From Octopus vulgaris (taxonomy: Eukaryota): a stretch of DNA of 64,000 nucleotides. The first letter of the stretch is position 1, and every line of letters starts with the position of its first letter. This document shows, in pieces, positions 5,985-39,388 of this stretch. Location of the stretch: NCBI GenBank assembly GCA_951406725.2, contig OX597839.1, forward strand, positions 20,026,001-20,090,000. Direction: 5' to 3'. The notes under the pieces were generated by a model, which ran no database searches, was not told the DNA's origin, and saw only the letters and a list, made by a program, of their open reading frames with translations. A program made the position numbers and the translations under genes.

Positions 5985-7570
<1,586 letters not shown>

Positions 7571-11765: not shown

Positions 11766-11945
11766 ATAATAAATATTAGGGAATAAATCCAAAATTACAG
11801 GGAAAAAATCAGATTTAGGATTAAATCCAATTTTATAGTAAAATATTATATAATATTAATTCGAGACAAAACCACTATTCTGCAAATCAAACAAGGAAAG
11901 ACTTAATCAATACATAAAAAAATTTAATATAAAGTAAATAAATCG

Positions 11946-11989
11946 CCACTACAATTGTTTCATGTCTTCAAATGACATTCGTCAGGTGG
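11946..11989 (-). ncRNA. Minimal type I hammerhead ribozyme
   Basis: Reverse complement of the 12054-12097 motif. Confidence 0.8.
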
Positions 11990-12053
11990 ATTCCCGATCT
12001 TCTATTCAGTTTTAATTTATGAAGTAAATTTATGAAGTGAAAAGATCGGGAAT

Positions 12054-12097
12054 CCACCTGACGAATGTCATTTGAAGACATGAAACAATTGTAGTGG
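12054..12097 (+). ncRNA. Minimal type I hammerhead ribozyme
   Basis: ccac-CTGACGA-atgtc(atttgaa)gacat-GAAA-c(aatt)g-TA-gtgg; canonical core, predicted cleavage after GUA at 12093. Confidence 0.85.
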
Positions 12098-12183
12098 CGA
12101 TTTATTTACTTTATATTAAAATTTTTTATGTATTGATTAAGTCTTTCCTTGTTTGATTTGCAAAATAGTGGTTTTGTCTCGAA

Positions 12184-18259: not shown

Positions 18260-18850
18260 GGCACTAGGCCCGAAATGTTTTGAGAGGGGGGGGGCAGTCG
18301 ATTGCATGGACCCCACTGATTTACTGGTACTTAATTTATCCATCTCGAAAGGATGAAAGGCAAAGTCGACCTCGGCGGAATTTCAACTCAGAACGTAAAG
18401 ACAGACGAAATACCTATTTCTTTATTACCCACAAGGGGCTAAACATAGAGGAGACAAACATGAACAGACATAGGTATTAAGTCGATTATATCGACCCCAG
18501 TGTTTCACTGGTACTTAATTTATCGACCCCGAAAGGATGAAAGGCAAAGTCGACCTCGGCGGAATTTGAACTCACAACGTAACGGCAGCCGAAATACCGC
18601 TAAGCATTTCGCCCGGCGTGCTAACGTTTCTTATTTCTTTACTGCTCACAAGGGGCTAACAGAGGGGACAAAGAAAGACAGACAAACGGATTAAATTGAT
18701 TATATCGACCCTAGTGCGTAACTGCTACTTATTTAATTGACCCCGAAAGGATGAAAGGCAAAGTCGACCTTGGCGGAATTTGAACTCAGAACGTAAAGAC
18801 AGACGAAATACAGCTAAGCATTTCGCCCGGCGTGCTAACGTTTCTGCCAT
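18260..18850 (-). mobile_element. SINE family B trimer
   Basis: Three tandem core copies at ~18350, ~18535 and ~18745. Confidence 0.85.
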
Positions 18851-21082: not shown

Positions 21083-21557
21083 GAAAGATGGGATCTTGAA
21101 ATCAAACCCACTGCGTGGTACCTTGACCAATTGTGTTCTACAATAGCCACAGGCCCGTCAATCCTTTCAGAGGGGATTTGGTAGACGGAACCGGAAACTG
21201 AAAGAAAATGGTCATGTGTGTGTGTGTCTTTACAAACTCTGTTAGTTTTTCCTCCCGCATGACCTAGTGGTTAAAATAATTCCGATTCCAAGACCGGCAT
21301 CGAGTTAGTTGTGTTCTTGAGCAAAACACTTCACTCCACGTAGTTCGACTCCACTCAACCTTAAATGGATAACTCTGAGATATATTGATGTTGCGTTCAG
21401 GTGCAACGTTAGCCTGCCCATTTAGCCAGCATGATGGCATCATTCGAAAGCTGCATCAATGCGAGGAAAGGCACTGTGACCAGCGGTGTACAACAACATC
21501 CGAGAATCTGGTCAATACAGTGATACAGTGATTTTTCGCTGTACATCTTGAAATATA

Positions 21558-22338
21558 TATTTCTTTACTACCCACAAGGGGCTAAACATAGAGGGGACAA
21601 CCAAGGACAGACAAACGGATTAAGTCGATTACATTGACCCCAGTGCGTAACTGGTACTTAATTTATCAACCCCGAAAGGATGAAAGGCAAAGTCGACCTC
21701 GGCGGAATTTGAACTCAGAACGTAACGGCAGACGAAATACCTGTTTCTTTACTACCCACAAGGGGCTAAACACAGAGAGGACAAACAAGGACAGACAAAC
21801 TGATTAAGTCGATTACATTGACCCCAATGCGTAACTGGTACTTATTTAATCGACCCCGAAAGGACGAAAGGCAAAGTCGACCTCATCAAAATTTGAACTC
21901 AGAACGTAACGGCAGACGAAATACCTATTTCTTTACTACCCACAAGGGGCTAAACACAGAGAGGACAACCAAGGACAGACAAACGGATTAAGTCGATTAC
22001 ATTGACCCCAGTGTGTAACTGGTACTTAATTTATCGACCCTGAAAAGATGAAAGGCAAAGTCTACCTCGGCGGAATTTGAACTCAGAACGTAACGGCAGA
22101 CGAAACACCTATTTCTTTACTACCCACAAGGGGCTAAACACAGAGAAGACAAACAAGGACAGACAAACTGATTAAGTCGATTACATCGACCCCAATGCGT
22201 AACTGGTACTTATTTAATCGATCCCGAAAGGATGAAAGGCAAAGTCGACCTCGGGGGAATTTGAACTCAGAACGTAACGGCAGACGAAATACCGCTAAGC
22301 ATTTCGCCCGGCGTGCTAACATTTCTGCCAGCTCGCCG
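21558..22338 (-). mobile_element. SINE family B tetramer inside one 14-bp TSD
   Basis: Four ~185-bp units with only one complete head; CATCTTGAAATATA at 21544-21557 and 22339-22352. Confidence 0.9.
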
Positions 22339-37119: not shown

Positions 37120-37504
37120 CAGATATACGGGATGGTCCTTGCTGGAACAAAATAACTAATACTACATGATCCTCCGTCGGTATAGACGATGTCTAGTCAG
37201 TCGTTCGGTCCATTAAAAACTACCTACGCATTGAATTCGTACGTCATCTTCAGACATGAATGTCTCGCAGGTTAACTGTGAAATATACTCAGCCTGACAT
37301 CGTGTCTCATCCTGACAAGTTGACTGACCAGCCTCAAGTCAACATTGAACGGTAATCTACTCCATCAAAATTGACCGATGGCTAAAAAAACACAAACCAC
37401 TACTATTGCTACTACTACAACGACGACAGCATAATATGACAAGTTGACTAAATTTTGCGCAGTTTCAATCCGCTCTGTTTTGCTCACAATCATGTTAAAT
37501 ATTA

Positions 37505-37927
37505 CGGAGATGTACTTGCATAGTAAGTGACATGATCTGAGATCTTGTGCTGAAACAAAAACAATTGCAGCGTGGAAGGTGTCTATAAGCCATTTAAAAA
37601 CAAAAAAAAACCCAGTTAGATTCACTTCAACATTTAAACTTAATTTGTCAAAATATTTTCGTCGCTTTGATACCGCGACCTATTCCCTTTTTGTCAGTGA
37701 ACAGGTTGCTGTTTCAAAGCGACGAAAGTACTGCACGAAATTTTGTCAGTGAAGAGGTCGCGGTTTCAAAGCGACGAAAATATTGGACGGAATTTTGTCA
37801 ATGAACAAGTCGCCGTCTCAAAGCGACGAAAATATTTTGACAACTTAAATTTAAATGTTGAAGTGAATCTAACGGATTTTGTGTATTTTTAAATGGCTTA
37901 TAAACCACCTTCCACGCTGCAAATGTT
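37505..37927. mobile_element. PLE-like inverted duplication with three tandem 52-bp HHR-like units (37690, 37742, 37794)
   Basis: Arms ~37560-37687 and ~37800-37927; units tttgtca-(G/A)TGAA(C/G)A-g-gtcgc..gcgac-GAAA-(atat/gtac)-T; same family as 39148-39347. Confidence 0.65.
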
Positions 37928-38192
37928 CATGTTGAATAACTTTATGTTAAATAACCAAATGAAGGAAAATTGCGCCTCTCTTTAGTAGCTGCACATGCTG
38001 GAAATGGCAGGTGTATCTCATCCTTATCCATTTAATTTTAAATGCTGTGCAGTACGTTCAGTTCCATAGCAAGGCATTAGTGTATTTTACTTAGCAATGA
38101 TGATGATGATGATAATGATGGTGATGATGATGATGATGAGGAGGAGGAGGAGGAGGAGGAGGAACAGACGTTATTTCAACGAGATACGTCTT

Positions 38193-38298
38193 GTCAACTG
38201 AGGAGACACATGTACGCCGACGGATACACCTAAACCAAATGTTCGGTATCTCGCTTGTGGGACATTGATGCTAAAAGGGTCGAAACAATTGTAGTGAC
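38193..38298 (+). ncRNA. Minimal hammerhead ribozyme with ~70-nt stem II insertion
   Basis: gtcaa-CTGAGGA-gac[...]gtc-GAAA-c(aatt)g-TA-gtgac; the element ends at (TA)n ~38407. Confidence 0.65.
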
Positions 38299-38404
38299 CA
38301 ACAAACATTCTCGTATCCCCCATCTTCCGTCTGTTTCATAAATCCAACAAACACTAAGAAAGCGAACGCTAAGCGACCAGGTCCATAACATACGATTTAT
38401 TAAA

Positions 38405-38455
<51 letters not shown>

Positions 38456-38657
38456 TATATTATATTATATTATATTAAGGGAATTACTACACGTAAATGC
38501 CTCACGCTATGAGGGACCCTTAAAGTAAAAACTACCATAATAAATATAGTGTGCCTAGAGCGAAGGAATGCAAGTTGGAAGTCAAGATGGTGGTGCAGCA
38601 TGGCCGCAGCCATATGACTGAAACTAGCAAAATAATAAGAGTTTGTGTGTATGTATA

Positions 38658-38900
38658 TCAGATGTTGTTACACATCGCTGGTCACAATGCGCTTCGCATT
38701 GTTTTAGCCTTCAAATGACGCCACCCCGCTGGCTAAGCGAGCAGGCCAACAGAAGAAAGAGTGGGAGAAAGTTGTGGCGAAAGAGTACAGCAGGGATCAC
38801 CACTGCCGGAGCCTCGTGGAGCTTTAGGTGTTTTCGCTCAATAAACACTCATCACAACGCCTGGTCTGGGAATCGAAACCGCGATCCTACGACCGTGAGT
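38658..38900 (-). mobile_element. SINE family C
   Basis: Matches 9842-10117. Confidence 0.8.
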
Positions 38901-38967
38901 GGGTATATATTTATAAAAAAGAATTTGAAAACGCCACTATATAAGACAAATTTTAATTTTCTCAGGA

Positions 38968-39015
38968 ATTTTACATGTTTCGGTTCTTCTTGAAAAAACG
39001 AATCTTATCAAAAAT
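38968..39015 (-). ncRNA. Variant minimal HHR (U3:A8 core)
   Basis: Minus strand: attt-TTGATAA-gattc[...]gaacc-GAAA-catg-TA-aaat. Confidence 0.5.
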
Positions 39016-39114
39016 ATTTTAAAGAGTTAAGTGTAATAAAAAAGTTCATAATTGTTTCTTACTGGTCTCAACAGAATCCACGTGGTGGTTTTTTGTGGGG
39101 AGTAAGCAAAATAG

Positions 39115-39150
<36 letters not shown>

Positions 39151-39158
39151 GCACGGAC

Positions 39159-39208
39159 TTTGTCAGTGAACAGGTCGCGGATTTTAGCGACGAAAATATT
39201 TTGACAAA
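39159..39208 (+). ncRNA. Variant minimal HHR (G3:C8 core) in (TA)n-flanked element 39148-39347
   Basis: tttgtca-GTGAACA-g-gtcgc(ggatttta)gcgac-GAAA-atat-TT-tgacaaa; 7-bp stem I. Confidence 0.6.
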
Positions 39209-39343
39209 TTAAACTTAAATGTTGAAGTGAATCGAACGGCTTTTGTGTATTTCTTAAATGGCTTATAAACACCTTCCACGCTGCAATTGTTTTCGTTTCA
39301 GCACACGATCTCAGATCAAATTACTTGCTATGCGAGTACATCT

Positions 39344-39388
<45 letters not shown>

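Follow-up and report, generated by a model that had tools for sequence, protein, structure and literature searches.

The window analysed here is a stretch of 64,000 nucleotides of Octopus vulgaris DNA (assembly GCA_951406725.2, contig OX597839.1, positions 20,026,001 to 20,090,000 of the forward strand), animal DNA rich in microsatellites. At positions 39159-39208 it holds a hammerhead ribozyme motif, located in a repeat that we assign to a Penelope-like element (PLE), a retrotransposon. The motif reads TTTGTCA-GTGAACA-G-GTCGC-GGATTTTA-GCGAC-GAA-AATATT-T-TGACAAA (Table 1). The literal CUGANGA core is absent; the core is GUGAACA, which the initial annotation had placed at 39166 and at 37697, and direct reading of the sequence confirms both. 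In the minimum-energy fold, an open core is flanked by a 7-bp stem I and a 5-bp stem II. The features of a minimal type I hammerhead are present, namely stems I and II around the core, the G10.1-C11.1 pair, GAAA and UH, and the Watson–Crick pair between core positions 3 and 8 (the 3:8 pair) is present as G3:C8. The palindrome required as stem III for dimer formation, AATATT, starts at 39195 and was found in 83 of 86 sampled copies. U17 lies at 39201, and the cut site is predicted after it from hammerhead numbering. The extra base before stem II, which had been annotated as part of the deviation, does exist, but it is the normal state of the PLE minimal hammerheads described in PMC4209133.

With a descriptor that accepts any Watson–Crick 3:8 pair, three sites were matched in the window, one at 39166, where stem I has 7 bp, and two forming a canonical pair at 12058/11985. 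The mean over 40 Markov-resampled windows was 0.15 matches at a stem I of at least 4 and 0.0 at a stem I of at least 7; the descriptor matches therefore exceed chance. Furthermore, a covariance model built from 11 relatives without G3:C8 gave 39159-39208 the highest rank of any site in the window, at 23.5 bits and an approximate E of 0.009. In Rfam, 39140-39260 had no match to a hammerhead up to E 10, and for the whole window there was none among the 150 listed of 337 matches. Folding of the whole repeat unit was no better than that of shuffles (z 0.0). Judged by its sequence, the motif reads as a real hammerhead core of minimal type I.

The 200-base unit that contains the motif is a young dispersed repeat. 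A 23-base probe had 8,120 matches in the genome, and the solo copy in the window was 99% identical to 39 other full-length matches (40 scored of 1,147 candidates) and 97–98% identical to both pseudo-long terminal repeats (pLTRs) of a full-length copy (L371). A common upstream extension (573 matches) led to copies encoding a reverse transcriptase (RT) and, at the C terminus, a GIY-YIG nuclease, in a frame on the same strand as the motif that ends 1 kb before it. One such copy (L122) has an open frame of 755 residues, ending 1 kb upstream of the motif, in which RT motifs (YVDD) can be read by eye, as can a VY..YIG nuclease motif at the C terminus. The open reading frame (ORF) protein had 113 homologues, two of them named reverse transcriptase proteins, and the nearest named homologue, labelled Octopus vulgaris, matched the genome analysed at 100%. 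A Pfam scan of the ORF gave no match at E 0.1; a Pfam GIY-YIG search of the genome led to other PLE families, with part of the G3:C8 repeat at 1 of 30 loci. The full-length copy consists of a pLTR (2224-2424), an ORF that begins at an ATG inside this pLTR, a 3' untranslated region (UTR) of about 1 kb and a second pLTR (6485-6682), so that its two hammerheads lie 4,261 bases apart. Its ORF carries one stop and one frameshift, and its repeated part extends about 900 bases upstream of the start. The hammerhead is on the sense strand, 50 bases upstream of the ATG, in the pLTR (5' UTR); the reading of 39258..39345 runs on into the ORF in full-length copies, and the sister family described below has a similar N-terminus.

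For end mapping, 100 copies were selected solely by a downstream probe. Their 3' ends fell at unit positions 143-150 (38 copies) and 204-207 (51 copies), TA repeats followed 54 of them, and an inverted part-copy lay upstream of 61. The pLTR, the optional tail and the inversion are marks of PLEs (PMC8557442; PMC11167929), and the hallmarks of endonuclease-bearing (EN+) PLEs are present: a single ORF with RT and C-terminal GIY-YIG, direct-repeat pLTRs overlapping the ORF start, inverted truncated copies and an optional tail. These sequence features identify the repeat as, by all indications, the pLTR of an autonomous PLE. A CX3CX2C motif (CQSNCAVC) ahead of the nuclease, which agrees with the CX2-5CxxC linker definition of PMC8557442, suggests a PLE of Neptune or Nematis type. 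PLEs of these types (Craig et al. 2021, PMC8557442) share with the present family the C-terminal GIY-YIG preceded by CX3CX2C, the (TA)n targets, the inverted 5'-truncated copies and the optional tail, which is about 60 bases here compared with 30–40 in theirs.

Could the repeat instead be a miniature inverted-repeat transposable element (MITE) or the end of a DNA transposon with long inverted repeats, resembling a hammerhead by chance? The window does contain long inverted arms, and insertion is into (TA)n. The arms, however, are truncated at varying points, there are two alternative 3' ends, and the unit occurs as a direct repeat on both sides of an ORF for RT and GIY-YIG (L371-L374); moreover, relatives carry canonical hammerheads at the same place. 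We rejected this explanation, to which we attach practically no credence.

The G3:C8 state belongs to the family and not to the window copy alone. A pattern with positions 3, 7 and 8 and the extra base left free had 4,950 matches in the genome, and 80 fetched regions covered 86 of the first 100 of these. Among the 86 copies, 81 were G3:C8, three U3:C8, one G3:G8 and one G3:U8. In the downstream-probe sample, the copies covering the column had G3 in 74/76 and C8 in 78/78 cases, and in an older subfamily each base was found in 13 of 14. Only 17 genome matches were altered at both positions, one of them being C3:G8. A search for an intermediate or a C3:G8 subfamily within the family found none. 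Similarly, sequencing runs (4 of 24, all assembled contigs) gave no variant at position 3 or 8 among the rows listed; in the assembled-contig runs labelled organism A, C and D, the loose ends read GTGAACAG. These counts indicate that G3:C8 is fixed family-wide and ancestral within the family.

What preceded it can be judged from relatives. Eleven relatives by the protein tree carry a hammerhead in the corresponding position; its 3:8 pair is C3:G8 in eight, the sister family among them, and U3:A8 in three. They comprise the sister family and 10 of 33 metagenome loci, those that gave a readable hammerhead just behind the ORF; the other metagenome loci were too short, decayed or without the motif and were excluded from the alignment. 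The sister family resides in the same genome, with 54% protein identity; a quick 21-row tree supports the grouping with an SH-aLRT (approximate likelihood-ratio test) value of 100. Its motif reads CUGAUGC-G-GUCAC...GUGAC-GAA-AGAACU-U, with a covarying stem II, and 48 of 51 motifs were identical. Across the 12 aligned sequences, all have a Watson–Crick 3:8 pair (CG 8, UA 3, GC 1), the stem III palindromes differ and covary among the relatives, and U17 is found in 8 of the 11 relatives as well as in the G3:C8 family. Because the relatives have C3:G8 or U3:A8 at the same place, G3:C8 is derived, a swap by which the tertiary pair changed in a compensatory way. The swap of C3-G8 to G3:C8 asserted in the initial annotation has thus proved to be the natural state of a whole family, with covariation among its relatives.

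The relatives also show core variants of their own. In the sister family (L136:4639-4686), which has 2,017 probe matches and frames of up to 1,312 codons, C9 replaces A9 and the palindrome AGAACU is imperfect; C9 also occurs in L161. In another relative (L162:4966-5016), U15.1-A16.1 (GAAUAGCUA) replaces A-U, a rare core variant. A further PLE family (L067-L090, e.g., L072:2660-2710) has a U3:A8 hammerhead with the palindrome ACATGT behind the GIY-YIG domain, and many of its copies have open 781-codon frames. With this family, the genome holds C:G, U:A and G:C versions of the 3:8 pair.

Does the swapped hammerhead cleave? We think it reasonably probable, from sequence and from published mutants, that the pLTR of this autonomous PLE carries a minimal type I hammerhead, its 3:8 pair fixed as G3:C8, and that this hammerhead would slowly cleave itself after U17, acting as a dimer and probably assisted by the protein of the element. 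Self-cleavage after U17 is likely, at a low rate. The engineered swap C3G/G8C partly rescues cleavage in the PLE hammerhead of Anolis Poseidon PAc (Frangieh et al. 2024, PMC11167929), and in a pairwise scan it was the only rescuing double mutant in its region (Roberts et al. 2023, PMC9901934). These partly active swaps are laboratory mutants, whereas in the present case an amplifying family has the same swap as its natural condition. Like ours, the PAc element has a tail defined by two RT start sites, and its hammerhead is close to where the ORF begins; that ORF, however, starts inside the hammerhead, and here the ATG follows 50 bases after it.

The comparison of subfamilies bears on selection. 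Between the older and the young subfamily, 59 of 200 third codon positions differ (26 of 30 loci aligned). Only 1 of 42 structural positions changed, from U-A to U-G in stem I with the wobble kept, compared with 4 of 8 loop II positions and 5 of 49 in the remainder of the 5' UTR. Likewise, the A to G change at 39204, in 11 of 97 copies, preserves pairing as U-G. A hand tally of common variants in the probe-chosen copies gave 1/42 against 11/50 (p 0.005) or, without loop II, against 7/42 (p 0.03). On these sequences, the evidence that the structural positions are constrained appears fair, not overwhelming.

Several observations weigh against a cleaving, selected ribozyme. The probability of so few structural changes is 0.0001, 0.009 and 0.07 at a background of 25, 15 and 10%, and constraint is only modest (p about 0.07) when the neighbouring 5' UTR, with about 10% change, is the yardstick; exchange of pLTRs between the subfamilies, which may have occurred, would weaken the test. 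In the 12-sequence alignment, 92.5% of the cells are paired, with two-sided change in 10 of 11 pairs and 23–55% in slid controls, figures that lean upward because the relatives' motifs were chosen by a hammerhead-like pattern. The predicted dimer (-27.2 kcal/mol) gains no stability over two monomers (2 x -13.3 to -14.7), in line with the protein help that is reported to be needed (PMC11167929). Finally, of the 5' ends of the 100 copies, 48 fell at unit positions -5 to +5 and only four within positions 51-60, the predicted cut being at 57/58. As the ends cluster at the unit start and not at the cut site, the inserted copies derive from uncut RNA. Insertion of the Anolis PLE in vitro is also independent of cleavage (PMC11167929).

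The derivation of copies from uncut RNA would suit a hammerhead descendant that no longer cleaves usefully and is kept as a protein-bound fold or as a 5' UTR shape, its 3:8 pair having been swapped once under relaxed selection. The same Anolis study reports that hammerhead mutants had no effect on insertion in vitro and that RNA-seq gave no ends at the cut site; PLE minimal hammerheads are poor cleavers in vitro (PMC4209133), and the change from C:G to G:C takes two transversions, probably via an unpaired state. On the other hand, none of the unpaired core bases was lost between the oldest and the youngest subfamily, and neither was the 3:8 complementarity, whereas loop II changed, and the 3:8 pair is part of the tertiary-stabilised active fold (PMC3884650). 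Furthermore, the canonical C3:G8 sister family equally lacks cut-site ends (0/30); their lack is therefore not special to G3:C8 and does not mark it as dead. We regard loss of useful cleavage as unlikely, though it deserves real weight, and prefer slow cleavage.

How could slow cleavage coexist with insertion from uncut RNA? The 5' boundary of the copies is preferably read as a start site; G precedes it in 10 of the 17 ends at position 0, some of these being due to the inverted part. A splice acceptor was considered, CTAAC..YAG being a splice-acceptor motif, and was rejected, as the 100 junctions had no shared upstream exon. Transcription would start about 15 bases upstream of stem I. Reverse transcription would then prime at two internal sites and copy the uncut RNA back to its 5' end, which would yield the many solo copies of 145 and 205 bases; internal priming at two 3' ends has been demonstrated for the Anolis PLE (PMC11167929). 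Cleavage would most likely act on read-through RNA, in which hammerheads 4.26 kb apart could pair through AAUAUU and excise a unit-length RNA that might circularise, in keeping with the hypothesis of palindrome pairing and of unit release or circularisation in PMC4209133. The natural dimer partners would be the two pLTRs 4,261 bases apart and not the 52-bp tandem units described next. The upstream extension of about 900 bases in L371 is the kind of more-than-unit copy that such a template could give, although tandem donors could give it too.

The initial annotation had also proposed that 52-bp tandem units near 37690 provide the arrangement for dimeric folding. Three 52-nt units do exist, at 37690, 37742 and 37794, the later two being 87% and 75% identical to the first, and units 2 and 3 have decayed at the 3:8 pair as annotated (G3:C8, G3:G8 and A3:C8 in units 1, 2 and 3). 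The dimer-ready arrangement, however, does not stand. Both junctions fuse the stem III end to the 5' flank of the next unit; units 1 and 2 therefore have G17 and no stem I partner. The annotated change from AATATT to AGTACT is present at 37727 but is not a compensatory change of the family: AGTACT was found in 0 of the 86 sampled copies, and it arose by two transitions private to this copy or else comes from the inverted 5' end, snippets of which are seen at other junctions. The array lies behind an inverted copy in a single old composite insertion (37501-37927) that is 86–89% identical to the young copy.

A working retrozyme-like array, with adjacent units folding as dimers, would draw on the three head-to-tail units, on a site that unit 1's core and unit 3's 3' half could form on paper, and on a second array elsewhere in the genome, of six 55-56-bp units; PLE-derived tandem hammerhead arrays have been described (bioRxiv 10.64898/2026.07.22.740005). 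Copy number and anatomy largely refute it. No other of the 40 scored candidates covers the first 86 bases of the array, short head-to-tail junctions numbered 10 matches at 6 loci genome-wide, two units lack H17 and the stem I partner and two have broken 3:8 pairs, and the region with its inverted copy folds into one long hairpin (-87.5 kcal/mol). The non-LTR retrozymes of that preprint likewise carry type I hammerhead repeats derived from PLEs, but as tandem arrays with a complete hammerhead per unit, whereas here we find dispersed solo pLTRs and autonomous copies; their hallmark, a complete hammerhead in at least two consecutive tandem units, is absent from the window array. A working array is, in our judgement, very improbable. 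The array is a rare, decayed insertion accident, incidental to the hammerhead and not a feature of the family, the triple being the product of an old template switch. Captured cleavage fragments were considered as the origin of the tandem junctions and rejected, the donor ends at six independent junctions, the window included (unit positions 56, 57, 59, 63, 64 and 69), being too scattered. The second array (L393:1460-1800), six G3:C8 units behind an inverted copy with stem II mismatched in every unit, is a cleaner case of the same tandem accident.

How new is the swapped core? Our literature search found natural U3-A8 and engineered G3-C8 hammerheads but no natural G3:C8, which other hammerhead or PLE surveys or their supplements may list, and the word 'ribozyme' is absent from the main text of a 2026 repeat annotation of Octopus vulgaris. 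A natural, family-wide G3:C8 core is thus new relative to the literature found, the ribozyme type and the element class being known. PLE minimal type I hammerheads (PMC4209133) agree with ours in pLTR location, the extra base between 9 and 10.1, G10.1-C11.1, a palindromic stem III, frequent U17, mostly solo copies and inverted pairs. They differ in that the supplement rows compared have CUGA or UUGA cores, with U3-A8 as the natural swap. Natural U3-A8 hammerheads (Perreault et al. 2011, PMC3088659) are a like case of covariation at the 3:8 pair, but U3-A8 is two transitions from C3-G8, whereas G3:C8 is two transversions away and is unmentioned in section 8 of that paper.

The 3:8 pair is a tertiary contact of the active hammerhead, for which the published natural covariation we found covers C:G and U:A. 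G17 is said to give a G3-C8 variant higher activity than C17 does (PMC3884650, as data not shown), which suggests that the clade's U17 may have made the swap tolerable. A broader reading, which we advance tentatively and would not bet on, sees here a natural G3:C8 hammerhead without precedent, catalytically active and under selection in a still-amplifying retrotransposon; U17 would have permitted the swap, since the usual C17 would trap G3. On this reading, such cores escape CUGANGA descriptors and Rfam, and PLE clades reported without hammerheads may hold them. Because standard searches miss the G3:C8 core, a descriptor that leaves the 3:8 pair free is needed when PLEs without a ribozyme are surveyed. 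G:C in thousands of copies and a C:G sister family in the same genome form a ready pair for studying a two-step core swap, and one that also bears on whether position 17 permits it. The case also bears on the role of hammerheads in Penelope elements, as the core is conserved though inserted copies derive from uncut RNA.

Table 1. Features of the hammerhead motif, its repeat unit and the tandem array in the window.
Feature	Position	Strand	Basis or remark
Stem I, 5' strand TTTGTCA	39159..39165	+	pairs with 39202-39208 in the minimum-energy fold
Core G3-U4-G5-A6-A7-C8-A9 and extra G before stem II (G3 = 39166, C8 = 39171)	39166..39173	+	sequence, family counts, alignment with 11 relatives
Stem II, 5 bp, G10.1-C11.1; loop II 39179-39186 varies between subfamilies	39174..39191	+	
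GAA, palindrome AATATT (39195-39200; stem III in the predicted dimer), U17 (39201)	39192..39201	+	sequence; covarying palindromes in relatives
Stem I, 3' strand TGACAAA	39202..39208	+	sole common change A to G at 39204
Solo pLTR copy with tail, young PLE subfamily, between (TA)n runs	39146..39345	+	
Start codon and first ~30 codons of the PLE ORF, including the tail between the two 3' ends	39258..39345	+	
Inverted, 5'-truncated copy with tail, older subfamily; damaged core, no stem I 5' strand	37501..37688	-	86% identical to solo copy
Tandem unit 1: intact G3:C8 core, AGTACT end, then G and 5' flank of unit 2	37690..37732	+	
Tandem unit 2: G3:G8, AATATT end, no H17 or stem I 3' strand	37733..37784	+	
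Tandem unit 3 and remaining pLTR to tail-less 3' end: A3:C8, with U17 and the 3' strand of stem I	37785..37927	+	

Elsewhere in the genome, an inverted pair of pLTRs of the G3:C8 family recurs at many places with identical junction and flanks (L245-L249, L261, L275-L278, L280); this composite has been amplified secondarily as one unit. Within the window, 11940-12130 holds canonical C3:G8 minimal hammerheads as a head-to-head inverted pair (cores at 12058 on the + strand and 11985 on the - strand, with A17 and the palindrome ACAATTGT), enclosed by a long inverted repeat that has TA runs on either side; these are likely solo pLTRs of a different PLE family. Two further regions, 18415-18845 and 21550-22293, hold a common dispersed repeat in tandem, the units being 214 and 184 bases long.
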